From: Escherichia coli
GTDB lineage: Bacteria > Pseudomonadota > Gammaproteobacteria > Enterobacterales > Enterobacteriaceae
Assembly (NCBI RefSeq): GCF_044647545.1
Contig: NZ_CP172818.1
Length of the DNA stretch: 64,000 bases
Direction: 5' to 3' (one strand)
Under the pieces are notes generated by a model. That model saw nothing but the letters and a program-made list of their open reading frames with translations. It was not told the origin of the DNA and did no database searches. Of the stretch, positions 14,288 to 57,265 are shown in pieces. Each line of letters starts with the position of its first letter. Within the stretch, counting starts at the first letter, position 1. Both the position numbers and the translations under genes were made by a program.

Positions 14288-14518
14288 TCAGACCCCGTTG
14301 GCAAGCCGCGTGGTTAACTCATCCATAAAATATCGCGCAATGGCGGGCATCCCCTTTCGCCCGGCAAATAAAGCATACAACGGTCTGGGTATGCCGCTCC
14401 ACGGTGCAAACAGGCGCACCAGTTCACCGTTCGCAAGCCCCTGTTTACAGGCAAATTGAGGCAATAACGCCACGCCATTCAACCCAACCGGGACGCGAAC
14501 TCGCCGAGCAAAATGCAT
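14288..14518 (-). pseudogene. yqfE: C-terminal fragment of a LysR-family regulator
   Basis: 76-aa ORF resembling only the C-terminal tail of a LysR-type effector domain; no N-terminal HTH portion upstream. Confidence 0.6.
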
Positions 14519-14845: not shown

Positions 14846-15528
14846 CCCCTCTGTTTAACGGAAGCATGGAATTATTCCATGCTCCTCTGCCAAAATGAAA
14901 TAAAAAATGAAAAAAGCTAATCTTACAGGTACGTTGGTTTGCTTTGTCGCATGCCTTATTTTTTTGTCGTCCGGTGATATTTTTCGTGAAAAGCCAATCG
15001 CTCTAATATGGTTCCTTCGACAAAACATACTCTTTTTTACGGGAACTCTTGCGTGGTGTCTGATGACGCTGACGATGTGTTTATCGTTGCGTTCATCATG
15101 GCTTAACAAAGTGCTGGGCGGTCTGGATAAAGTATGGCGAATCACATAAGTGGGCAGGAATATGCGCCATAGCGTTTGCTTTCGCCCACTGGCTGGATGA
15201 AAAATTACCCCAGTTATTCGTCGCCTTTGGCTGGCTTACTCACCCTGGTAAAATCGTTGATATTAACCTGACGCCAGTACAAGAAAATTGGCTTCATGCG
15301 GGACTGTTAGCGGGTGAATGCGCAATGTTTATTATTATAGCGATGGTTTGCGTATCTCTTAGCAAAAGAGTTCCCTATCATTTATTTCATCTTGTTCACC
15401 GTTTGTTCCCCGTCTTTTATCTGGCAATTGCCTTTCATGTGTTTACTGCTTTGTTTAAATCATACTGGTGGAACTCCTGCTGCGTATTTATTAATTTTAA
15501 TTACTATTCCGGGCGTCTTTGCGGCTTT

Positions 15529-15537
15529 CATTTCGCT
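15529..15537. repeat. Left copy of 9-bp target-site duplication (catttcgct) flanking IS1
   Basis: Identical 9-mer directly abuts both IS1 ends. Confidence 0.85.
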
Positions 15538-16307
15538 GGTAATGACTCCAACTTACTGATAGTGTTTTATGTTCAGATAATGCCCGATGACTTTGTCATG
15601 CAGCTCCACCGATTTTGAGAACGACAGTGACTTCCGTCCCAGCCTTGCCAGATGTTGTCTCAGATTCAGGTTATGTCGCTCAATGCGCTGAGTGTAACGC
15701 TTGCTGATTACGTGCAGCTTTCCCTTCAGGCGGGATTCATACAGCGGCCAGCCATCCGTCATCCATACCACGACCTCAAAGGCCGACAGCAGGCTCAGAA
15801 GACGCTCCAGTGTGGCCAGAGTGCGTTCACCGAAGACGTGCCACAACCGTCCTCCGTATCCTGTCATACGCGTAAAACAGCCAGCGCTGACGTGATTTAG
15901 CACCGACGTAGCCCCACTGTTCGTCCATTTCAGCGCAGACAATCACATCACTGCCCGGCTGTATGCGCGAGGTTACCGACTGCGGCCTGAGTTTTTTAAT
16001 AAAGTGACGTAAAATCGTGTTGAGGCCAACGCCCATAATGCGGGCGGTCGCCCGGCATCCAACACCATTCATGGCCATATCAATGATTTTCTGGTGTGTA
16101 CCGGGTTGAGAAGCGGTGTAAGTGAACTGCAGTTGCCATGTTTTACGGCAGTGAGAGCAGAGATAGCGCTGATGTCCGGCAGTACTTTTACCGTTACGCA
16201 CCACGCCTTCAGTAGCTGAGCAGGAGGGACAACTGATGGAGATGGAAGCCACGGGAGCACCTCAAAAACACCATCATACACTAAATCAGTAAGTTGGCAC
16301 CATTACC
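15538..16307 (-). mobile_element. IS1-family insertion sequence (770 bp), divergent isoform
   Basis: Terminal inverted repeats ggtaatgactccaacttactgat / atcagtaagttggcaccattacc; InsA and InsB homologous ORFs on minus strand; flanked by 9-bp direct repeat. Confidence 0.92.
15553..16252 (-). pseudogene. insAB: IS1 insA-insB region; insA fused in-frame to insB' but insB then frameshifted (defective transposase)
   Basis: ORF 15827-16252 = [13 protein letters not shown]...[16 protein letters not shown]...[13 protein letters not shown]; 4-nt insertion at the A6C slippery site (cgtcactttattaaaaaactc) puts insA in the insB frame; a further indel (~2 nt) shifts frame so the rest of InsB is ORF 15553-15942. 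Confidence 0.8.
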
Positions 16308-16316
16308 CATTTCGCT
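16308..16316. repeat. Right copy of 9-bp target-site duplication (catttcgct) flanking IS1
   Basis: Identical to 15529-15537. Confidence 0.85.
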
Positions 16317-17082
16317 GCTGAAATTCAAACGGTAGTAAAAACAAGCATCAGGCTACCATTAAAAACATTGTTAACCATCCAGGACAAATTACCGAAGTCA
16401 CCCTGGAACTGGAACATGCCATCGACTATTCTCCGGGGCAGTTTGCATTCTTAACGTTCGCACACAGTAAAGAATCTCACCCTTTTACTATCGCTTCATA
16501 CACCAAAGAGAAGAACACGTTGCGCTTTGCCATCAAAAATTTAGGGGATTATACCTCTACCCTTGCATCCTCGATAAAAATCGGCCAGTCCGCCTTCGTT
16601 GAAGGGCCATGGGGAAAGTTTGATTTAGACTCTCCCTTGCTCCCACCAGGTCTGGATAGCAGGAGGCATCGGCATTACCCCCTTTATCGCCCAGCTTGAG
16701 TATCGTAAACATCATGGCGCGTCCTCTGTTCCTGTGGATCTCTGGTATTACGTCAGCCGAAGCGAGGATGCCTGGTATGTTGATAAACTGACCTCACTTT
16801 GTGCCCAGGCCAGGGTCACACTGCATCTGCTTGATGCGCATAAAGGTGAGCGCCTACAGGCGCACTATCTTACTGATAAAATAGCAAATAAAGGTGACAC
16901 CCATTTCTGGTTTTGCGGCCCACAGAGTTTTGCCAAAGCGCTCAGCAAAGGGTTATATGAAAATGGGATTGCCAGCCAAAACTTCCATTACGACCGTTTT
17001 TGTATGCGTTAAATGCTCTGTACCCAACGCAAAATTGTGTCATAGTGCAGGAAAAAGCATTTACCAGGAGCAGACAACAGCA

Positions 17083-18179: not shown

Positions 18180-20323
18180 ATGTCTAACGTGCAGGAGTGG
18201 CAACAGCTTGCCAACAAGGAATTGAGCCGTCGGGAGAAAACTGTCGACTCGCTGGTTCAGCAAACCGCGGAAGGGATCGCCATCAAGCCGCTGTATACCG
18301 AAGCCGATCTCGATAATCTGGAGGTGACAGGTACCCTTCCTGGTTTGCCCCCTACGTTCGTGGCCCGCGTGCCACTATGTATACCGCCCAACCGTGGACC
18401 ATCCGTCAGTATGCTGGTTTTTCAACAGCAAAAGAGTCCAACGCTTTTTATCGCCGTAACCTGGCCGCCGGGCAAAAAGGTCTTTCCGTTGCGTTTGACC
18501 TTGCCACCCACCGAGGCTACGACTCCGATAACCCGCGCGTGGCGGGCGACGTCGGCAAAGCGGGCGTTGCTATCGACACCGTGGAAGATATGAAAGTCCT
18601 GTTCGACCAGATCCCGCTGGATAAAATGTCGGTTTCGATGACCATGAATGGCGCAGTACTACCAGTACTGGCGTTTTATATTGTCGCCGCAGAAGAGCAA
18701 GGTGTTACACCCGATAAACTGACCGGCACCATTCAAAACGATATCCTCAAAGAGTATCTTTGCCGCAACACCTATATTTACCCGCCAAAACCGTCAATGC
18801 GTATTATCGCAGACATCATCGCCTGGTGTTCCGGCAACATGCCGCGATTTAATACCATCAGTATCAGCGGTTACCATATGGGTGAAGCGGGTGCCAACTG
18901 CGTGCAGCAGGTAGCATTTACGCTCGCTGATGGGATTGAGTACATCAAAGCAGCAATCTCCGCCGGGCTGAAAATTGATGACTTCGCTCCTCGCCTGTCG
19001 TTCTTCTTCGGCATTGGCATGGATCTGTTTATGAACGTCGCCATGTTGCGTGCGGCACGTTATTTATGGAGCGAAGCGGTCAGTGGATTTGGCGCACAGG
19101 ATCCGAAATCACTGGCGCTGCGTACCCACTGCCAGACCTCAGGCTGGAGCCTGACTGAACAGGATCCGTATAACAACGTTATACGCACCACCATTGAAGC
19201 ACTGGCTGCAACGCTGGGCGGTACTCAGTCACTGCATACCAACGCCTTTGATGAAGCGCTTGGTTTGCCTACCGATTTCTCAGCACGCATTGCCCGCAAT
19301 ACCCAGATCATCATTCAGGAAGAATCAGAACTCTGCCGCACCGTCGATCCACTGGCCGGATCCTATTACGTTGAATCGCTGACCGATCAAATCGTCAAAC
19401 AAGCCAGAGCCATTATCCAACAGATCGACGAAGCCGGTGGCATGGCGAAAGCGATCGAAGCAGGTCTGCCAAAACGAATGATCGAAGAGGCCTCAGCGCG
19501 CGAACAGTCGTTGATCGACCAGGGCAAGCGTGTCATCGTTGGTGTCAACAAGTACAAACTGGATCACGAAGACGAAACCGATGTACTTGAGATCGACAAC
19601 GTGATGGTGCGTAACGAGCAAATTGCTTCGCTGGAACGCATTCGCGCCACCCGTGATGATGCCGCCGTAACCGCCGCGTTGAACGCCCTGACTCACGCCG
19701 CACAGCATAACGAAAACCTGCTGGCTGCCGCTGTTAATGCCGCTCGCGTTCGCGCAACGCTTGGTGAAATTTCCGATGCACTGGAAGCGGCATTTGACCG
19801 TTATCTGGTGCCAAGCCAGTGTGTTACCGGCGTGATTGCGCAAAGCTATCATCAGTCTGAGAAATCGGCCACCGAGTTCGATGCCATTGTTGCGCAAACG
19901 GAGCAGTTCCTTGCCGACAATGGTCGTCGCCCGCGCATTCTGATCGCCAAAATGGGCCAGGATGGGCACGATCGCGGCGCGAAAGTGATCGCCAGCGCCT
20001 ATTCCGATCTCGGTTTCGACGTAGATTTAAGCCCGATGTTCTCTACACCTGAAGAGATCGCCCGCCTGGCAGTAGAAAACGACGTTCACGTAGTGGGCGC
20101 ATCTTCACTGGCTGCCGGTCATAAAACGCTGATCCCGGAACTGGTCGAAGCGCTGAAAAAATGGGGACGCGAAGATATCTGCGTGGTCGCGGGTGGCGTC
20201 ATTCCGCCGCAGGATTACGCCTTCCTGCAGGAGCGCGGCGTGGCGGCGATTTATGGTCCAGGTACGCCTATGCTCGACAGCGTGCGCGACGTACTGAATC
20301 TGATAAGCCAGCATCATGATTAA
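18180..20323 (+). pseudogene. scpA: Methylmalonyl-CoA mutase (sleeping beauty mutase) with a -1 frameshift after codon ~57
   Basis: N-terminus MSNVQEWQQLANKELSRREK...TGTLPGLPP in frame 0 (ORF 18159-18593), then conserved [30 protein letters not shown]... continues in frame 2 (ORF to 20323); shift occurs in the C5 run at 18348-18352. Confidence 0.8.
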
Positions 20324-27137: not shown

Positions 27138-27269
27138 TCAATATTCCTTTTCAACTGACTCAAAATGGAGAAATACACTCCGCCGCCTTATGACGGGCAG
27201 TCTGACAAGGGTAAACAATAAAGCATAATTTTGCCAAATAGATCACAGATTTCTCATCTGTATCCTCTG

Positions 27270-27300
27270 GCGAAAAAAAGACCCGCAGAGCGGGCCTTGA
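27270..27300 (-). terminator. Rho-independent terminator downstream of fbaA
   Basis: Minus-strand hairpin ggcccgc-tctg-cgggtc followed by tttttttc. Confidence 0.65.
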
Positions 27301-27320
27301 GATAAGCAGAAAGGAATGAC

Positions 27321-28400
27321 TTACAGAACGTCGATCGCGTTCAGTTCCTGGAATGCTTTTTCCAGACGAGCGATCATCGAAGTCTGACCGGCACGCAGCC
27401 ATACGCGCGGATCGTAGTATTTCTTGTTCGGCTGATCTTCGCCTTTCGGGTTACCCAGCTGACCCTGCAGGTAAGCTTCGTTCGCTTTGTAGTAGTTCAG
27501 AACGCCTTCCCAGGTTGCCCATTGGGTATCGGTATCGATGTTCATTTTCACTACGCCGTAGCTTACGGAGTCTTTGATTTCCTGAGCAGTAGAACCGGAA
27601 CCACCGTGGAATACGAAGTTCAGGCTGTTGTGCGGCAGGTTGTGTTTCTTAGAAACATATTCCTGAGAATCACGCAGGATGGTCGGAGTCAGAACCACGT
27701 TACCCGGCTTGTAAACACCGTGTACGTTACCGAAGGACGCTGCGATGGTGAAACGCGGGCTGATTTTGCTCAGCTCGGTATACGCATAATCAACGTCTTC
27801 CGGCTGGGTGTACAGTGCAGAAGCGTCCATGTGGCTGTTGTCCACGCCGTCTTCTTCACCACCGGTGCAACCCAGTTCGATTTCCAGAGTCATGCCGATT
27901 TTGGACATGCGCTCCAGGTATTTAGAGCAGATTTCGATGTTCTCTTGCAGAGATTCTTCAGACAGGTCGATCATGTGAGAAGAGAACAGCGGCTTGCCGG
28001 TAGCTGCGAAGTGTTTTTCACCAGCGTCCAGCAGACCGTCGATCCACGGCAGCAGTTTCTTCGCGCAGTGGTCGGTGTGCAGGATAACCGGAACACCATA
28101 ATGTTCAGCCATCTGGTGAACGTGATGCGCACCAGAGATCGCGCCCAGGATAGCAGCACCCTGCGGAACGTCAGATTTCACGCCTTTACCAGCGATAAAG
28201 GAAGCACCACCGTTGGAGAACTGAACGATAACCGGCGCTTTAACTTTAGCAGCGGTTTCCAGCACGGCGTTGATGGAGTCAGTACCGACGCAGTTTACTG
28301 CTGGCAGTGCGAAGTTGTTTTCTTTTGCTACCTGGAAAACTTTCTGTACGTCATCACCAGTGATTACGCCAGGTTTTACGAAATCAAAAATCTTAGACAT
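27321..28400 (-). CDS. fbaA: Fructose-bisphosphate aldolase class II
   Basis: 359-aa product MSKIFDFVKPGVITGDDVQKVFQ...; ORF track has upstream in-frame extension. Confidence 0.95.
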   Translation of the reverse strand: MSKIFDFVKPGVITGDDVQKVFQVAKENNFALPAVNCVGTDSINAVLETAAKVKAPVIVQFSNGGASFIAGKGVKSDVPQGAAILGAISGAHHVHQMAEHYGVPVILHTDHCAKKLLPWIDGLLDAGEKHFAATGKPLFSSHMIDLSEESLQENIEICSKYLERMSKIGMTLEIELGCTGGEEDGVDNSHMDASALYTQPEDVDYAYTELSKISPRFTIAASFGNVHGVYKPGNVVLTPTILRDSQEYVSKKHNLPHNSLNFVFHGGSGSTAQEIKDSVSYGVVKMNIDTDTQWATWEGVLNYYKANEAYLQGQLGNPKGEDQPNKKYYDPRVWLRAGQTSMIARLEKAFQELNAIDVL

Positions 28401-28613
28401 GTCTCTTGTCCTGTATCGTCGGGCCTTATACTCGTCATACTTCAAGTTGCATGTGCTGCGTCTGCGTTCGCTCACCCCAGTCACTTACTTATGTAAGCTC
28501 ATGGGATTCACTCTCTTGTCGCCTTCCTGCAACTCGAATTATTTAGAGTATGAAAAAGTGCGTGCTTTAAAAGCGCGCTGCAACAAGGGCAGGTTTCCCT
28601 GCCCTGTGATTTT

Positions 28614-29777
28614 TTACTTCTTAGCGCGCTCTTCGAGCATCGCTACTGCAGGCAGTACTTTACCTTCCACGAATTCGAGGAATGCGCCGCCGCCAGTGGA
28701 GATGTAGGAGATTTTGTCAGCAATGCCGAACAGGTCGATTGCTGCCAGAGTGTCGCCGCCGCCAGCGATGGAGAACGCTTCGCTGTCTGCGATAGCGTTA
28801 GCCACGATTTCAGTACCTTTGCGGAAGTTCGGGAATTCGAACACGCCAACCGGACCGTTCCACAGAATGGTTTTCGCATTCTTCAGGATTTCAGCCAGTT
28901 CCTGAGCGGAAGCATCACCGATATCCAGGATCTGCTCGTCAGCTTTCACATCGTTAACAGATTTCAGGGTAGCCGGTGCAGTTTCAGAGAACTCAGTTGC
29001 TACACGAACATCAGACGGAACCGGGATGTTGCAGGTGGTCAGCAGACGTTTTGCTTCGTCAACCAGATCAGCTTCGTACAGGGATTTACCCACATCGTGG
29101 CCTTGTGCCGCGATAAAGGTGTTAGCGATACCACCACCAACAATCAGCTGGTCAGCGATTTTAGACAGGGAGTCCAGAACGGTCAGTTTGGTAGATACTT
29201 TAGAACCACCAACGATAGCCACCATCGGGCGAGCAGGTTCTTTCAGTGCTTTACCCAGCGCGTCCAGTTCAGCTGCCAGCAGCGGGCCTGCGCACGCAAC
29301 GTCAGCGAATTTACCGATACCGTGAGTAGAAGCCTGCGCGCGGTGAGCAGTACCGAATGCGTCCATTACGAACACGTCACACAGTGCAGCGTATTTTTTG
29401 GACAGGGTTTCGTCGTCTTTCTTCTCGCCTTTGTTGAAGCGAACGTTTTCCAGAACAACCAGTTCACCTTCAGCAACGTCAACGCCGTCGAGGTAATCTT
29501 TAACCAGACGAACCGGGTTAGACAGTTTGTCTTTCAGGTAGTTAACAACCGGCAGCAGAGAGAATTCTTCGTTGTACTCGCCTTCGGTAGGACGACCCAG
29601 GTGGGAAGTTACCATCACTTTTGCGCCTTGTTTCAGGGCCAGTTCGATGGTCGGCAGAGAAGCACGGATACGCGCGTCGCTGGTTACTTTCCCGTCTTTT
29701 ACTGGTACGTTCAGATCCGCACGGATAAATACACGTTTCCCAGCAAGATCCAGATCGGTCATCTTAATTACAGACAT
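28614..29777 (-). CDS. pgk: Phosphoglycerate kinase
   Basis: 387-aa product [25 protein letters not shown]... Confidence 0.95.
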
Positions 29778-29826
29778 GGTGAATCCTCTCGTTGATTCTA
29801 AAAGTTTTGCAGACGCTGCTTGCGTC

Positions 29827-30846
29827 TTACCTGAAAGCAACAGTAGCCATAGCTAACGTCGTGTCGAGCATTCGGTTAGCAAAGCCCCATTCGTTATCGC
29901 ACCAGACCAACGTTTTGATCAGGTGTGCGCCACTGACCCGGGTTTGAGTGCCATCGACAATGGCACTGTGCGGATCGTGGTTAAAATCTACAGAGACCAA
30001 CGGCAATTCCGTATAGTCAACTATACCATGAAATGCACCTTGTGCTGCTTTTTGCAGCAACAGGTTGACTTCATTGGCTTTTACAGGTTTCTTCACCGTC
30101 ACGCTTAAATCGATTGCCGTCACATTTATGGTTGGCACACGTACCGCAATCGCTTCAAAGCGATCGTTAAATTGCGGAAAAAATCGTGTGATACCGGCGG
30201 CCAGTTTAGTATCGACCGGAATGATCGACTGGCTGGCTGCCCGGGTGCGACGCAGGTCAGGATGGTATGCATCAATAACCTGTTGATCGTGCATGGCGGA
30301 GTGAATTGTGGTCACAGTGCCGGACTCAATACCGTACGCATCATCTAACAATTTGATGACGGGAATTATGCAATTCGTGGTACAGGAAGCGTTAGAAACG
30401 ATGCGGTGTTCCGCACGAAGTTGATCCTGATTGACGCCGTAAACAACGGTCGCGTCGAGATCGTTACTGCCAGGATGTGAAAAGAGCACTTTTTTAGCCC
30501 CGGCGGCAATGTGTGCTTCACCATGCTCGCGGGAGCCATATACGCCGGTGCAGTCGAGGACTACATCAACGCCAAGTTCACGCCAGGGGAGCGATTGCAG
30601 TGAACGTTCATGCAATACACGGATGGCGTCATCACCAACAAAAAGTTGATTGCGTTCCTGTCGTACTTCCCATGCAAAACGGCCATGGCTGGTGTCATAT
30701 TTCAACAAATGCGCCATGCCCGCAGCATCCGCCAGTTCGTTGATTGCCACCACGGTAATTTCCGCCCGGCGTCCGGATTCATACAAAGCACGAACCACAT
30801 TACGCCCGATGCGACCGAAGCCATTTATCGCTACGCGTACGGTCAT
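29827..30846 (-). CDS. epd: D-erythrose-4-phosphate dehydrogenase
   Basis: 339-aa product [21 protein letters not shown]... (GAPDH family). Confidence 0.95.
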
Positions 30847-31130
30847 AGATCTCCTGCAAGGTTTTCCCTGAGCAAATTTGCCAGACAGAGTAATCCAGCA
30901 AATCGTCCGGGGAAACCTTACCTGTCGCAAACTGCGACTGATTGGTTAATTGTCGAACATTTAATCGACTGAAACGCTTCAGCTAGGATAAGCGAAACGT
31001 GGAATAAAAGGAATGTTTGTCCAGCCGAAGAAGACATTTATCTGACTCACATCACACTTTTATCCCCTTTTGTGGGAAGCTTTATTCCAGGCTGGCGTAA
31101 TAATAACCCTGCAATAACTGGAATAAATTG

Positions 31131-31844
31131 TCAGCTTGTGAAGTAATACCGGCCTTCTTCAGTCATCTCTACTATCAGATTGGCCTGACGACTATTCATC
31201 AGCACACGCTCGACATTGGGGCCATCGGTTCGGGCATAAAATGCTTCGGCTTCTTGCCGCGATAATCCTCCCGCAATTTTACGACTAATCAAGCGCTCCC
31301 GCAGAATTTGAGCAGGTGCATGAATAAAAATAGAAAAATCGCAGAAAGATGCCAATTCCTGCCACTTTTCATCATCCAGTAATAGCCAGTTTCCTTCGAC
31401 GATGACGAGTGGTGCGGTAACGTGCAACGCATCTTCAACAGGATCATGCTTTTGTCGATCGTACTGCGGCCACGTACAATCCCCTTCCACGACCTGGCGC
31501 AGATTTTCCGCCAGTTTCGCAACGTCAAATGTCTCTGGTGCGCCTTTGAAGGGGCGCAATTGATGCGCATCCAGCCAGCTATTGTAATGGTGAAAACCAT
31601 CCATCGGTAGCGTCTGAATAGCGGGCAGTTCCGGGTCTTGTTGCGCGATATATTCCCAGAAGGTGGTTAGGGTAGATTTACCCGTCCCCGGCGGAGCGCA
31701 AAGAAAAACCACCGTACGCCGCTGCGGATTTACCGTCTGTAAGGCCGCCAACATGTGCAGCAACGGTTTATGTACATTTTCAATCTCTTCGTTCTGGTAC
31801 TGTGCCTGTATCTTCAGCCCATTCACCGTTAATTCAATTTTCAC
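31131..31844 (-). CDS. yggC: P-loop kinase-like protein YggC
   Basis: 237-aa product with Walker A CAPPGTGKST. Confidence 0.85.
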   Translation of the reverse strand: MKIELTVNGLKIQAQYQNEEIENVHKPLLHMLAALQTVNPQRRTVVFLCAPPGTGKSTLTTFWEYIAQQDPELPAIQTLPMDGFHHYNSWLDAHQLRPFKGAPETFDVAKLAENLRQVVEGDCTWPQYDRQKHDPVEDALHVTAPLVIVEGNWLLLDDEKWQELASFCDFSIFIHAPAQILRERLISRKIAGGLSRQEAEAFYARTDGPNVERVLMNSRQANLIVEMTEEGRYYFTS

Positions 31845-32350
31845 GGCGTTAATTCCTTTAAGGTGGTCGTTACTGCCAGCGTCAGCGCCGTTTTGACCAT
31901 CCCGCTAAAACGCGCCTCTGACCAGACGGCGAAATCGGCGAACTTCATCGCTTTCAATGCGTCATAGAGCGTCGCATTGCGGGTTATGCTATTGACGTTG
32001 CTGATAAAATCCCAGGTCATGTCATCGGCAAATCCGGGCGTTTCATCCTGTTCGTTCAGGTAATGCCAGAACTGGGAAAAATGCGTGATATCGGCGTACA
32101 GCCATTTATCCATTTTCCCCAGCGCATAAATCAAACGCAGCGCAACATCAATATCGTCAAGCGGGCCGCTTTGGGCGAGTAACGGCTTCACTGCATATTC
32201 GACGATCTCTTCATCGTTATCGACAAACAGCGACGGCAGAAACTGGCGTATCCCCTGGAGCAAAATAGAATGCGCAGTTTTCATAAATGAAAATAAATTG
32301 TCCTGTGCGTCCAGTTGCTCAAGCACATCATCTTCTGTCAGCGTCGCCAT
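31841..32350 (-). CDS. fumE: YggD/FumE family protein (169 aa)
   Basis: 169-aa product MATLTEDDVLEQLDAQDNLFSFMKTAHSILLQ... Confidence 0.8.
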   Translation of the reverse strand: MATLTEDDVLEQLDAQDNLFSFMKTAHSILLQGIRQFLPSLFVDNDEEIVEYAVKPLLAQSGPLDDIDVALRLIYALGKMDKWLYADITHFSQFWHYLNEQDETPGFADDMTWDFISNVNSITRNATLYDALKAMKFADFAVWSEARFSGMVKTALTLAVTTTLKELTP

Positions 32351-32371
32351 TGGTCTTCCGATAGATCACCA

Positions 32372-33337
32372 TCAATGCAGGGAGTCTATTATATTACACG
32401 TTTGGTCCGCGCCGCCGATCAGTAATGTCTGCGTCCGCACCCCATTCGCCGTCTGTTGGATACCGTTCACCAACTCGCCACCCGTCACGCCCGTAGCGCT
32501 AAAGAGGATATCGTTCCCCCTCACCAGTTCATCGAGCGAGTACACACGGTTAACGTCAACGCCCATTGCCTTGCAACGCTTGCGCTCCTGCTCTGCAATC
32601 TGCCGATTTTCCGTGTAATCCCCTTTAGCCTGACAAAAGTCAATCAGCTGGGCCTGCATATCCCCGCCTAATGCTTTAACGGCACAGGCAGAAATCACGC
32701 CTTCTGGCGCACCGCCGATGGTGTACATCACATCGTAAGGATTATCCTGCCAGCAGGTCAGCACGCTGGCGGCGACATCGCCATCCGGCAGAGCGAAAAC
32801 CTTCACGCCCAGCTGTGTTGCTTCTTCAATCGCGGCACTCAGGCGCGGTTTATCCAGCGTAACCATGCGCAGCTTGTCCAGCGGTTTGCCTAACGCTTTC
32901 GCCACGTTGCGCAGGTTGTCCACCAGTGGCAAAGACAGATCAATCGCGCCCGCCGCCAGCCGATTAACAACCAGTTTTTTCATATACATATCGGGAGCGT
33001 GTAGCAGGCTGCCTCGTGGGGCGAAGGCCATGACTGCCAGCGCATTGCTCTGCCCCATCGCCACCATCCTGGTGCCTTCAATCGGATCAACCGCGATATC
33101 GACTTCTGGCCCATCGCCTTTGCCCACCTCTTCGCCAATCCACAGCATCGGCGCATGGTCAATTTCTCCTTCGCCGATAACCACTCGTCCACGAAAAGCG
33201 ACGTCGTTTAATGCCTGGCGCATCGCGGTGACCGCCAGGCCATCAATTTTATTTTTGTCGCCACATCCGGTTTGCGGCCAGGCAGCCAACGCTGCCTGTT
33301 CCGTAACGCGAAATAATGGCCACGCCAGGGACATCAT
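32372..33337 (-). CDS. yggF: Fructose-1,6-bisphosphatase class II (GlpX paralogue)
   Basis: 321-aa product, GlpX-like. Confidence 0.85.
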   Translation of the reverse strand: MMSLAWPLFRVTEQAALAAWPQTGCGDKNKIDGLAVTAMRQALNDVAFRGRVVIGEGEIDHAPMLWIGEEVGKGDGPEVDIAVDPIEGTRMVAMGQSNALAVMAFAPRGSLLHAPDMYMKKLVVNRLAAGAIDLSLPLVDNLRNVAKALGKPLDKLRMVTLDKPRLSAAIEEATQLGVKVFALPDGDVAASVLTCWQDNPYDVMYTIGGAPEGVISACAVKALGGDMQAQLIDFCQAKGDYTENRQIAEQERKRCKAMGVDVNRVYSLDELVRGNDILFSATGVTGGELVNGIQQTANGVRTQTLLIGGADQTCNIIDSLH

Positions 33338-34611
33338 TGCGCGGCCTCCCCGATATCAACGCCAAATTGCGCCAGCAGATATTTCTCGGCCTGCTCATTC
33401 CAGATGCCGTGCGTTTCCTCAACCAGCCGCGCCAACTCTTTAAACAGCGGATCGGTTTTGCCTTTTTCGGCAAAATCGGCAATGGCAGTGAGCGGCATGG
33501 TCACGCCGTTATAAATGAGTTTTTTACCGCCTGGGATATCCGGCAGATTGAGCACGGTTTCTGGCACCGCATCCAGGCCACCAATATGGGTCACCATAAA
33601 CGACGGCTGTAACTGCCCCGTGGCGCTAAGGGCAATCGCCTCTTTCATGTCGTCCGTTGAACCGCCAGATGTACCGACGACGTGCGTGCTGTTGTAATGG
33701 ACGTTGTAGAAATTAAACGGCACTTTGAAGTTTTTATCCGTCGGCCCGGCAAAGAAGTTCAGGCAGCCATCTTCCGCCAGTAATTCGTCAGCCATCTCAA
33801 CGACAGCAGGCACCGCCGCATAAACAAAAATGTCATCGAACCCGACATCTCCTGTCAGCGCCCGCAGCTTCTGTACCGGATCGCTCATCCCTTTGGTATT
33901 CACATACACCAGCTCAATGCCTTTACTGGCCGCCAGCTCCACCGGCAGCAGCTTCTGTACCTGCGCCAGGCGTTTGTCGTCGATATCGACCACCACCACC
34001 CGCGACGGTTGTATACCGCCGTTAATGGCGTAATCGATAGCGCCAATGCCCATTGGGCCAGCACACGCCAGCAGTGCAATATTGCCGCCAGGTTTGACGC
34101 CCATGCGATGCTCATAAACATATTGCGTGGTGTGATAATTGGCATGATAAGCGCCAATAATGCAGCACATAGGCTCTGCCAGCGACGCCGCAGCAAAATA
34201 AGAGCCGTGATAGGGTAATACGCAGCCCAGGTTAATGGCGATCTCGGGAATAATCATATAGGTGGCGTTACCGCCAAAATATTCGTAGCTGTAGCCCGCT
34301 GAATATCCGCCTGGTAACCCCATCGCCGGTTGCAATACAAAACGCTGGCCTTTTTTATATTTGTCGGTGAGATTTTTACCCACTTCAACAATAACCCCGG
34401 CACATTCATGCCCGGTAATGACCGGATGATTTTCTAAATCGTCGGGTACGCGTTTATGTTCACTACCGAGTAACGCCGCTTTCTAGGTCGATAAACAGAC
34501 GCTGTCAGAAATTACACTCACTAACAGTTCATTATCGGTAATTTCTGGCAGTTCAAATTCGCGCAGACGGACATCCCGCTTGCCATAAATAGCAGCAACT
34601 TTGGTTTTCAT
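33334..34611 (-). pseudogene. yggP: Zn-dependent dehydrogenase (MDR family) interrupted by in-frame TAG at codon 43
   Basis: ATG at 34609-34611 opens MKTKVAAIYGKRDVRLREFELPEITDNELLVSVISDSVCLST then TAG (plus-strand cta at 34483-34485), then same frame continues KAALLGSEHKRVP...GHECAG... to 33334; full frame = 425 codons. Confidence 0.8.
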
Positions 34612-34625
34612 TTTTACCTCTGTAA

Positions 34626-36014
34626 TCAGTGTTTATGTTCGGCGGTTAATTGATTAAATAAAGTGTCGAGTTTGGGATCGCCAATATAGTTATTAATCAG
34701 TATCAGCGGTTTATCCGTCACACGTTTCACGCGCCCTTCCAGACTAGCGTGAGTAACGACGATATCCGCATCCGCAGGCACGTTTTCTATCGCGTAATGT
34801 TTTACTTCAATTGCCAGCCCCGCTTTTTCCAGGCGTTTACGGAAGGTGGTTGCGCCCATCGCGCTGGAGCCCATCCCCGCATCGCAAACAAAGGCGATAC
34901 GCTTAACTCTGCTTAGCGAGAATGCACCCTCTTGTTTCATCGCCTTAACCGCATTGGCTGACTGAGCAAACTCATCTTCGCTCTCCGTTTCCACCGTTTT
35001 TTCCATCTTCAGTATCAGCGAAGTGATAGCAAAGGACACCAGGGTACCTACCGTAACACCAGCAATTGTCGCCAGGAATGAGCCTTTCGGCGTCAGCGCC
35101 AGGTAAGCAAAGATAGACCCCGGACTTGGGCCAGCCACCAGACCACCGTCCAGTAAGTTAAACATCCAGGTGCCAGACATACCGCCCGCAATCATGGCAA
35201 TAATGGTCAGCGGCTTCATCAGCACATATGGGAAATACAGTTCGTGGATCCCACCGAGGAAGTGAATAATCATCGCCCCGGGCGCAGAACGTTTACTCAT
35301 CCCTTTACCAAACAAGGTAAACGCCAGCAGCAGCCCCAGGCCCGGACCTGGGTTAGAGGCCACCATAAAGAAGATGGATTTACCGTTAACCGAAGCCTGT
35401 TGCATTCCCAGCGGATAATAGACGCCCTGATCGATCGCATTATTAAGGAAAAGCACTTTCGCCGGTTCATTGATGACTGACAGCAGAGGCAGATAACCCG
35501 CATGTACCAGCGCCTCAATACACTCTTTGACGAAAGTATTGGCAATTAACACCGCCGGGCCGATCACTTCAAAACCCAGCAGACAAAGGAGCATCCCCGC
35601 GATACCTAATGAGAAGTTATTGATAACCATCTCAAAACCAGCAGGTATGCGTTTTTCCAGTGCCTTATCGACATATTTTATGACCAGCCCACCGAGCGGC
35701 CCCATAATCATTGAGCCAAGGAACATCGGGATCTCTGCGCCGACGATCACACCAATAGTACCAATTCCGCCCATGACCGCGCCGCGTTTACCGCCGACCA
35801 GATGACCACCGGTAGAACCAATCATCACGGGCAATAAATAGGTAATCATCGGGCCGACAATTTTGGCGAAATGTTCGTTAGGCAGCCAACCGGTGGGAAT
35901 AAATAACGCAGTAATAAAACCCCAGGCAATAAAAGCACCAATATTGGGGATGACCATTGCAGTCAAAAAGCCCCCAAAAGCCTGGACCTTTGCACGAGCA
36001 GACTTGTTTTCCAT
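34626..36014 (-). CDS. cmtA: PTS mannitol-family EIICB component (cryptic)
   Basis: 462-aa multi-TM product MENKSARAKVQAFGGFLTAMVIPNIGAFIAWG... Confidence 0.9.
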   Translation of the reverse strand: MENKSARAKVQAFGGFLTAMVIPNIGAFIAWGFITALFIPTGWLPNEHFAKIVGPMITYLLPVMIGSTGGHLVGGKRGAVMGGIGTIGVIVGAEIPMFLGSMIMGPLGGLVIKYVDKALEKRIPAGFEMVINNFSLGIAGMLLCLLGFEVIGPAVLIANTFVKECIEALVHAGYLPLLSVINEPAKVLFLNNAIDQGVYYPLGMQQASVNGKSIFFMVASNPGPGLGLLLAFTLFGKGMSKRSAPGAMIIHFLGGIHELYFPYVLMKPLTIIAMIAGGMSGTWMFNLLDGGLVAGPSPGSIFAYLALTPKGSFLATIAGVTVGTLVSFAITSLILKMEKTVETESEDEFAQSANAVKAMKQEGAFSLSRVKRIAFVCDAGMGSSAMGATTFRKRLEKAGLAIEVKHYAIENVPADADIVVTHASLEGRVKRVTDKPLILINNYIGDPKLDTLFNQLTAEHKH

Positions 36015-36041
36015 AATATTATCCTGTAGAGGAGAGAGTAA

Positions 36042-36485
36042 TTATCCGCGGCTGATAATGTCCGCTAATTGTTTTTCTGATGATGCTGTTAAGAGTTGTT
36101 CGAGTATTTCTTCTTCGCACAGTAATTCACTTAACGCCTGAATAGCGCCAATGTGCGAATCGGCATCGGCAGCAGAGAGTCCGATGAGTAATTTAATTGG
36201 TTCGTCATTCCCCGGAAAATAAACACCTTGTTCAAGTAATGTCAAAGACATCCCGGTTTTAAGCGCCCCACATTCCGGTCGCGCATGAGGCATTGCCACG
36301 CCTGGTGCGAGAATATAATAAGGGCCATTGTTAATGGTGGAATCTTTAATTGCCTGAATGTAATTCTCGCTGATATAGTTTTTATCCAGCAATGATACCA
36401 TCGAGAAATCGATAGCTTCCTGCCAATCTTTTGCTGAATGTATAACTGAGATTGATGATTCTGGAAAATAATCACTAAGCCGCAT
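36042..36485 (-). CDS. cmtB: PTS mannitol-family EIIA component (cryptic)
   Basis: 147-aa product MRLSDYFPESSISVIHSAKDWQEAIDF... Confidence 0.9.
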   Translation of the reverse strand: MRLSDYFPESSISVIHSAKDWQEAIDFSMVSLLDKNYISENYIQAIKDSTINNGPYYILAPGVAMPHARPECGALKTGMSLTLLEQGVYFPGNDEPIKLLIGLSAADADSHIGAIQALSELLCEEEILEQLLTASSEKQLADIISRG

Positions 36486-36779
36486 AAATTATCCTTATTT
36501 TATTTTTAGGGTACCGTCCGGCGGTAAAAATAAAATACTCGTGCGGTTTAATGAAAGCAATTGAGAAGAAAAACCCCATAAACCAAAATAATAAAACCTT
36601 AAATAACAACAATATGAAATTGATATTTTTAAAGTCAACTTTGTATTTGTTATATTTATCACAAAATCAACATTTTGTTTGTTATTGTATTTGTGATGCA
36701 TATCTCTATTTATTTATTGAATGTTCGAAAACATACTTTTCTAATGCAATGTTTTTTCGCTATACCCCTTTATAGATTC

Positions 36780-37321
36780 TGAATTCTCACCTGTCGGCTA
36801 TTTTCTCCTTACCTCATGTGACATATTCCCCATTTTACTCAAAAAAAATTTATATAAAAGCACCTTTTTCATAAACCTTATTTCCCCCAAAAAAATCTTT
36901 TTTTATCCCTTTGGGCGTTTTTCCTGTTTTTTCCCCCTTTTTTTCTTTTTTACCCCTTAAAAAAAGGAACGCGGCATTTTTTTGCCCTACGAAAAAATCG
37001 TAAAATTTGCCGAGCCGGGTCTGGGTTTTAAGATCCCGTTTTTGAAAAGGGGAAAAAAATTTCCACCCGTAATAAGGCGGGGGTTTATCAGGGATTAAAG
37101 CCTTCAACCCCCCACCAGAAACCGGCAAAAAAAAAAATTGAGTGAGCTTCCACATAAAAAATTCAGAAAAAGGCGCGGTTTATACCACCTACAACACCAT
37201 TGAAGCATTAAAAGATCGTCTGATTGTCCGTCAGTTGCCAACTCAACTGGAGAATTCCCATATACATACAACTACAAAACAACAAACATAAACAAAACCC
37301 ACAAAAAAAAATATCTCTAAA
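36780..37321. other. Compositionally aberrant homopolymer-rich non-coding segment (origin unresolved; possible assembly/synthetic artefact)
   Basis: Dense runs of A7-11, T5-9, C5-6, G5; no credible ORF, RBS or RNA fold; cmtB-tktA spacer is ~885 bp here versus a few hundred bp as I recall for K-12. Confidence 0.5.
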
Positions 37322-41425: not shown

Positions 41426-41528
41426 AAGGGTTGGATTTGCGAAACACAAGTATGCGCTAATTATCGCCTTAAATGAAAAGAGGGCCGCATCAAGGACTAA
41501 CACAGGTCCCATACCACCAAACTCCAAC

Positions 41529-43542
<2,014 letters not shown>

Positions 43543-56075: not shown

Positions 56076-57265
56076 TCATTAATGCCGCATGCGGCGTTAA
56101 TCACTTCTATAATAAATATAATTATATATTAAACATATATTAAAATAACACAACAATAATATTCTTCAATCAAAAATAAACAAAAACACACGATGAACCG
56201 AACAACATGCAAAAACAAATCACATCTCAAAAATTTATAACACTCTTCCCCTCCAACAACGAAAACAAAGAAAAATACGTTAAAAAACAAAAAATATCGA
56301 AACAGAAAAACGAAAAAAAAATAAAGTAATGAATCACCACACGAGAACAAGAAAAAAACAACAAAATATATACTAATAACACAGTAGGAAAGGAATAAGA
56401 ATCAACAAAGAAATTTTTACCATCATCAAACGATAACAAACAACCGAAGAGGGAGATAGTTGCCACACCGACACAGAACATCTCTCCACATCACAACAAT
56501 AACAGGTAGCGGAGCACCCCCAATAACCAAAACACAGACCCATACTTGACAACCAGAACAAAAAAACACAACGACAAAAACCAAACAACGAAGAATGAAA
56601 AATGATAAAGAAGAAATTGAATAATTAACACTATCACCCCTACATCAAACTAGAAAAGAAATCGTTGTTAGATATGCGCGGTGTGGTGGTCCTGTGATGC
56701 GCGAACTAGGCGTGACGCCTTTTCTGTCGCCGTCATGCTTGCTCTGGTTGTATGCGTAGTCTGATAAGACGCTCCAAACCACAAAAGCACAGCATCCCAT
56801 TCAGACCAAAGAAGGTTATGATTGCCGGCATTTTCTACCGCTGTCAACGTCTCATCTTGTTATAACTGGATTACTGATACCGCCCTCAAACGTGTTAATT
56901 GTTTTTCCCTACACTGCGCGTTTCTAGCACGCTATTAGCGGGATATGCAAGGGACTAAGAGTCGCGGTAAAAACCGGCATATCAAACGCGGCTACCCGCT
57001 TCAGAAAAAGCAACCTCCAGGCCTAAAGCGTTCGACCTACCAAGTTCTCGTCAAGGCGGCATCGGCGGCATTTTACGCAACGAAGGCCGATCTTCACAAT
57101 TATGATTACCGGGAATAAAATCGCGATTTACCCAAACGATCGAACGGTTACAAATAATTCGCACCGCAAACCAACAATCCAAAAACTAGGATTCAAACCC
57201 ACCAAATAAAAAAAAAAAAAAAAAGGAAAAACAAAAAAAAAAACAACAAAAAAAAAAAAAAGAAA
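56076..57265. other. ~1.2 kb non-coding segment of aberrant composition: A/C-rich block (~56100-56640), ORF-free block with REP-like fragment (~56640-57180), A-rich tail (57181-57265)
   Basis: Strong strand-asymmetric A+C bias with very little G/T in the first block; runs A17, A11, A14 abutting yggM stop; only low-complexity ORFs in the track; hemW-yggM spacer is <100 bp in K-12 as I recall. Confidence 0.5.

Follow-up and report, generated by a model that had tools for sequence, protein, structure and literature searches.

The window, as we call the whole stretch of Escherichia coli DNA that was analysed here, is 64,000 nucleotides long. On its minus strand it carries a co-directional cluster of genes, cmtB-cmtA-yggP-yggF-fumE(yggD)-yggC. 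Within this cluster yggP is interrupted by an in-frame stop codon. The features are as follows, in the order in which the cluster is read:

36042-36485, minus strand: cmtB (PTS EIIA), intact, first gene of the cluster
34626-36014, minus strand: cmtA (PTS mannitol-type EIICB), intact, 14 nt upstream of yggP
33334-34611, minus strand: yggP, very probably a pseudogene (predicted zinc-binding dehydrogenase of the MDR family); 425 codons and a TGA, with the interruption at codon 43
34483-34611, minus strand: open reading frame of the 42-aa N-terminal remnant (MKTKVAAIYG...SVCLST*), the sole product predicted for the normal yggP start
34483-34485, minus strand: amber codon TAG, codon 43 of yggP, ancestrally TGG (Trp)
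33334-34383, minus strand: residual 349-aa open reading frame, with a GTG start at yggP codon 77
32372-33337, minus strand: yggF (glpX-like class II fructose-bisphosphatase), intact
31841-32350, minus strand: fumE (yggD), intact
31131-31844, minus strand: yggC, intact

Read on the minus strand, yggP starts with an ATG at 34611 and proceeds through ...TCG ACC TAG AAA GCG..., where the TAG occupies 34485-34483. In translation, the frame past the TAG is unbroken down to the TGA at 33336-33334. A first-pass annotation of this DNA had described an amber codon at position 43 of an otherwise intact 425-codon yggP, and the minus-strand reading bears this out. The split it reported, into a 42-aa fragment and a C-terminal remainder, is likewise found in the list of open reading frames, at 34483-34611 and 33334-34383. 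The gene name holds too, as this is a zinc-binding dehydrogenase gene located between cmtA and the glpX-like yggF.

The nearest intact allele is of the ST648 type and comes from strain FDAARGOS_497. Over the 1,278 nt of yggP, the window differs from it at a single place, nt 128, which is A in the window and G in the intact allele. This G128A change converts TGG to TAG, or in protein terms, W43*. With W43 restored, the window's gene encodes WP_022646100.1 exactly. An intact YggP of this kind is what the window's own copy is unable to make.

For comparison, 5,426 complete E. coli genomes were used. A 61-mer centred on codon 43 has an exact match in 3,190 of these in its TGG version, and in four in its TAG version. 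Together with the one-base difference, this agrees with the earlier proposal of a single G-to-A transition from TGG (Trp).

YggP was also aligned with 26 full-length homologues, at 65-99% identity, which reach from the Enterobacterales (Escherichia, Salmonella, Enterobacter, Buttiauxella, Serratia, Yersinia, Hafnia) as far as Vibrio and Clostridia. Each of the 26 is a single uninterrupted protein of 415-429 aa. Because the interrupted frame is homologous from end to end to this conserved family, it is not there by chance. Position 43 is W in 15 homologues and Y in the other 11, and the motif around it, C39-L-S-T-x-K-A-A, is invariant. None of the 26 full-length homologues has a stop or a gene boundary at position 43. 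The first-pass annotation had left room for two separate genes meeting here, and with W or Y at this position in 26 out of 26 homologues, that scenario is ruled out.

It is true that gene callers output two open reading frames for this locus, of 42 aa and 349 aa, and that the latter has been deposited as a protein. Taken at face value this could mean that the TAG is a natural boundary between two genuine genes, or else a site of programmed recoding or regulated read-through. We give next to no credence to this. The invariant motif spans the site in all 26 uninterrupted homologues, the allele is confined to four of the 5,426 E. coli genomes, and the 349-aa frame starts inside the ADH_N domain, without either of the zinc-ligand motifs. 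E. coli is not known to have UAG-recoding machinery. A natural two-gene split or recoding was rejected on the homologue alignment.

What the intact protein would do can be read in part from its domains. The restored YggP matches Pfam ADH_N (PF08240) at residues 26-123, with 37.1 bits against a cut-off of 23.5, and ADH_zinc_N (PF00107) at 186-329, with 62.6 bits against a cut-off of 31.8. In alignment with the solved ADH/SDH structures 9k8u and 1e3j, residues C39 and G66-H67-E68 fall on the catalytic-zinc motifs, and both are kept in all 26 homologues. The restored protein of the window shares its ADH_N and ADH_zinc_N domains, its Cys39 and its GHE66-68 with WP_022646100.1 and with K-12 b4465-type proteins. 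Judged by its sequence, intact YggP is a medium-chain zinc-dependent dehydrogenase/reductase (MDR).

A more specific name is harder to give. Some sources attach 'L-sorbose 1-phosphate reductase' to YggP homologues, and this is a label only. No NCBIfam equivalog for YggP scores above its cut-off; the best, IolM, reaches 86.8 bits where 450 are required. Assignment as L-sorbose-1-phosphate reductase (SorE) or as another specific enzyme was dropped, there being no curated equivalog match. The papers searched on yggP and cmtAB offered nothing on function.

The position of the stop within this protein is important. The TAG comes four residues past C39, which is the first catalytic-zinc Cys. The first in-frame ATG, GTG or TTG after it is the GTG at codon 77, and this is beyond G66-H67-E68. 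The 42-aa remnant contains C39 and has no Pfam domain, and the 349-aa frame has neither C39 nor G66-H67-E68, retaining only ADH_zinc_N (the Rossmann part) and having lost ADH_N. Translation from the normal yggP start would stop after 42 residues. A restart at codon 77, past the GHE motif and most of the GroES-like ADH_N, would be expected to yield no active dehydrogenase, unless the TAG is decoded.

There is thus an in-frame stop within a full-length homologous frame, a sense codon at the same place in relatives, and a loss of essential parts, which are the usual marks of a pseudogene. We consider it very probable that yggP is here a loss-of-function pseudogene of part of one clone, produced by one nonsense substitution (W43amber). 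It would also be a recent one, since the gene carries no further change and since the five neighbouring genes of the operon are intact. Those five are identical to annotated coding sequences.

A stop codon in a single stretch of DNA could of course be an error. Among the 5,426 genomes, only 62 have a yggP at 99% identity or more to the window's copy, and four have one that is 100% identical. These four carriers of the TAG are WP4-S18-ESBL-09 (Japan), 4973 (USA, blood), EC11 (Spain, gut) and MS14385 (Australia, blood). In all four, yggP is annotated by PGAP (RefSeq) as 'pseudo, internal stop', with the same 1,278 nt, the same TAG and the same operon context as in the window. Each has one copy of yggP, and no second copy was found in these four genomes. 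A further NCBI assembly (locus L006) has the 349-aa frame beside the 42-aa frame, in a yggP identical to that of the window.

The predicted 349-aa product is found on 158 public contigs and has been deposited as BBR96870.1, a 'hypothetical protein'. In terms of index blocks, which are not the same as samples, it accounts for 296 where the intact protein of the same allele type accounts for 3,584, or roughly 8%.

Because the allele is common to four independently assembled complete genomes and to more assemblies besides, the TAG is not a sequencing error. It is a genuine inherited minority allele. The first-pass annotation had judged an error to be less likely here than in the sbm lesion, and the identical allele in four complete genomes, along with the 158 contigs, supports the reading as a true substitution. 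RefSeq already records the gene as a pseudogene.

Another 349-aa hit, P0086, is unrelated to the TAG allele; its source assembly is riddled with indels. In that source, L007 (GCA_046452175.1, 1295809-1300858), the cmtA-yggP-yggF region is broken into many short open reading frames. This looks like the product of an indel-rich assembly rather than biology.

The window itself needs some care. Compared with WP4-S18-ESBL-09, 4973, EC11 and MS14385, it differs only in accessory and intergenic segments, and there it is apparently corrupted. Outside the core genes, some stretches of the window are not natural sequence. One could argue from this that the TAG is also an artefact of sequencing, assembly or reconstruction, and that the organism truly has TGG, since the window holds homopolymer-degraded stretches, low-complexity filler and, when set against every real ST648 chromosome, numerous small indels. 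This is extremely improbable, as four complete genomes, each sequenced independently, have the same allele, and more assemblies have it too. In addition, the anomalies are limited to accessory and intergenic DNA, and the 9.3 kb around yggP (27268-36561) show no difference whatsoever from real TAG-carrying ST648 genomes. With this segment free of differences, the yggP finding stands.

The anomalies elsewhere are of several kinds. The ST648 sequence is degraded at 36833-37311, in the 5' part of a prohibitin/Band_7-family gene: some 420 nt carry about 70 substitutions and small indels, almost all of them creating homopolymers of A, T or C, and the segment does not resemble natural E. coli DNA. 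The next 486 nt of real ST648 sequence are replaced there by 57 nt. A TRAP-transporter operon of ~3.2 kb in ST648 gives way at 56109-57265 to some 1.16 kb of low-complexity filler rich in A and C, of which only 245 nt (56788-57032) can be aligned, with 83% identity.

Relative to strain 4973, 1,346 bp are missing at 14480/14481 (parts of a LysR regulator and an azoreductase), 90 nt at 41476-41565 stand in place of 899 bp (a hypothetical protein), and 3 nt at 1008-1010 stand in place of 101 bp of the gcvP-bglA spacer. An IS1 copy with its flanks (15133-16628) has about a dozen small indels and substitutions when set against the real chromosome. Small spacer deletions relative to real ST648 genomes are found at 36562, 27264-27267, 40399 and 56086-56096. 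One of the spacer deletions measures 8 nt and lies 77 nt upstream of the cmtB start, likely in the cmt-ygg promoter region.

At 18347, one base is deleted from a C6 run in scpA (sbm, methylmalonyl-CoA mutase), a gene that is intact in 4973 (WP_000073261.1). This is presumably the lesion in sbm that the first-pass annotation had held to be more doubtful than the TAG, and it fits the indel noise of the window. Unlike the TAG, the scpA deletion is absent from 4973, the only genome compared at that place. Other lesions reported from this window, especially indels and those in accessory DNA, need comparison with real chromosomes.

The TAG coincides with a site for the Dcm methyltransferase, which lies as follows:

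34483-34487: destroyed Dcm site, CCWGG to CTAGG/CCTAG
34484, plus strand: mutated base, T where the ancestral base is C; the inner cytosine of CCAGG, the one that Dcm would methylate

Nucleotides 125-129 of yggP are ancestrally CCTGG on the coding strand, as in the intact allele, and this is a Dcm site (CCWGG). G128 pairs with the inner C of CCAGG on the plus strand, which now reads CTAGG at 34483-34487. There are 141 possible single-base nonsense changes in yggP, and only one of these, W43amber, is a transition at a Dcm inner cytosine.

Such sites have a history. Classical amber hotspots at Dcm sites are reported for the CCAGG sites of lacI (Coulondre and colleagues 1978; Lieb 1991, cited in PMC2715241), and Vsr very-short-patch repair counteracts them. 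The yggP lesion resembles the lacI hotspots in that a C to T change of the inner cytosine in CCWGG makes a TAG, in a lineage that has both dcm and vsr. It differs in that the 5-methylcytosine of lacI is on the coding strand (CAG to TAG), whereas that of yggP would have been on the template strand (TGG to TAG), where methylation is presumed. What is expected of a Dcm hotspot is found in yggP: an ancestral CCWGG, a change of the inner C to T, and a lineage that encodes Dcm. In carrier 4973, dcm (1,419 nt) and vsr are both annotated as intact.

Deamination of 5-methylcytosine in a Dcm context leads to a T:G mismatch, which is normally fixed by Vsr very-short-patch repair (PMC2715241). The sequence of events in yggP may then have been that a 5-methylcytosine at 34484 deaminated to thymine, that Vsr very-short-patch repair missed the T:G mismatch so formed, and that replication fixed C to T, which in yggP would be TGG to TAG. 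W43amber is most simply explained as such an escape from Vsr repair at a Dcm site, in which both the methylation of the site and the deamination are our inference. An ordinary G:C to A:T transition would leave the same trace as deamination at a Dcm site.

A stop codon need not end translation if something decodes it. The first-pass annotation had pointed to amber suppressors in the host as a matter to look into. The window contains no tRNA gene. The search in the comparison set covered suppressors of the supE and supF types. The supF-type tyr-tRNA(CUA) has an exact match in none of the 5,426 genomes, the carriers included. The supE-type glnV(CUA) has an exact match in 155 of the 5,426. The eight supE-type genomes listed are K-12-type laboratory strains or their derivatives, among them C600, DH5alpha, J53 and RR1; recovering these is a positive control for the method. 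In carrier 4973, the anticodons of glnV and glnX are both CTG, and there is no supE-type suppressor. With the supF type in no genome and the supE type absent from 4973, the check on these two suppressor types came out negative.

In the eight listed supE-type genomes there is no annotated feature under the match, which leaves the suppressor tRNA gene unannotated.

Could yggP still be functional, through a suppressor tRNA or natural read-through that places a working Trp, Tyr or Gln at position 43? Homologues have W or Y there, and insertion of Tyr or Trp would probably be harmless. A TAG followed by A (TAG-A) is a context that favours suppression in the older suppression literature, and the allele has persisted for long enough to reach four continents. 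Even so, decoding to a functional degree is highly improbable. The supF type is found in no genome, 4973 has CTG anticodons, the window is free of tRNA genes, and the stop is conserved in no homologue. At its basal level, UAG read-through in E. coli falls far short of wild-type expression. Given that position 43 tolerates W or Y, the rare products of read-through would probably be active, and nothing points to appreciable read-through of the TAG in yggP. We continue to regard the gene as a pseudogene.

The effects of the stop may extend beyond yggP. From the cmtA-yggP junction onward, the junctions in the cluster measure 14 nt, -4 nt, 21 nt and -4 nt. The ATG of yggF overlaps the TGA of yggP (ATGA), and yggF has its own GGAGG Shine-Dalgarno sequence 7 nt upstream. 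With the stop at codon 43, roughly 1.15 kb of untranslated mRNA would precede the yggF start, and this may lower the expression of yggF-fumE-yggC, through lost translational coupling and Rho-dependent polarity.

A scan of the minus strand between the TAG and yggF found no promoter-like or terminator-like site, with counts at background level. A polar effect on yggF-fumE-yggC may for that reason be considered plausible, if speculative. In a scan for Rho polarity, the C>G windows in the untranslated stretch of yggP were only modest. These windows and the strong Shine-Dalgarno sequence of yggF speak, though not decisively, against polarity.

As to lineage, the core segments of the window are 99.95-100% identical to ST648 chromosomes. 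MS14385 and ECONIH1 have been typed as ST648 (PMC8454413). W43amber would thus appear to have arisen within the ExPEC clone ST648, where its carriers form a minority sub-lineage of international spread. The flanks of 25 kb and 22 kb are essentially invariant across ST648 genomes. Within these 25 kb and 22 kb, the ST648 genomes offer no usable flanking SNPs that resolve a TAG sub-clade. A single origin is the parsimonious reading, and a Dcm hotspot could mutate repeatedly.

The presence of yggP in 5,414 of the 5,426 genomes argues that the gene is normally maintained by selection and is not freely dispensable. The cmt operon was reportedly described by Sprenger in 1993 as poorly expressed, or 'cryptic'. 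Lying in such an operon, W43amber is probably neutral or nearly so.

It is also conceivable that the pseudogene stands and that the allele rose by positive selection, with the loss of YggP, a polar down-regulation of the genes behind it, or both, benefiting this ExPEC sub-lineage. The carriers are intercontinental, the truncated product is indexed roughly 8% as often as the intact protein (296 blocks), and shortened forms of YggP occur in other lineages as well, including Shigella. We think this very unlikely. There is no evidence of convergence at codon 43 in other backgrounds, and the spread would follow just as readily from hitch-hiking with a successful multidrug-resistant clone. Blocks in the index do not stand for samples, and many of the shortened forms are partial sequences at contig ends. 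A broader version has W43amber as either selected, with the loss of YggP and polar damping being adaptive, or leaky, with read-through of the TAG-A maintaining a low, regulated level of enzyme. This we hold to be very unlikely. A neutral or nearly neutral pseudogene remains our preferred reading.

Shortened forms of YggP are also found on complete chromosomes elsewhere (P0123, P0128, P0130 and others), with lengths of 256 aa, 277 aa and 329 aa (Shigella dysenteriae Sd197). Since their lengths differ from that left by W43amber, these are different lesions, with many of the shortened forms being contig-end partials. The forms in other E. coli and Shigella lineages are probably independent truncations.

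Beyond what the first-pass annotation offered, this analysis adds the probable origin at a Dcm hotspot, the placing of the allele in an ST648 sub-lineage and the negative results for supE- and supF-type suppressors. The lesion in yggP is an ordinary nonsense pseudogene in a poorly characterised operon. W43amber can be used as a single-nucleotide marker for a sub-lineage of multidrug-resistant ExPEC ST648. It would also be a natural example of a 5-methylcytosine transition at a Dcm site that makes an amber codon, with the methylation presumed. For the carriers themselves, it would mean that the cmt-ygg sugar-phosphate operon, itself poorly understood, lacks one of its enzymes.
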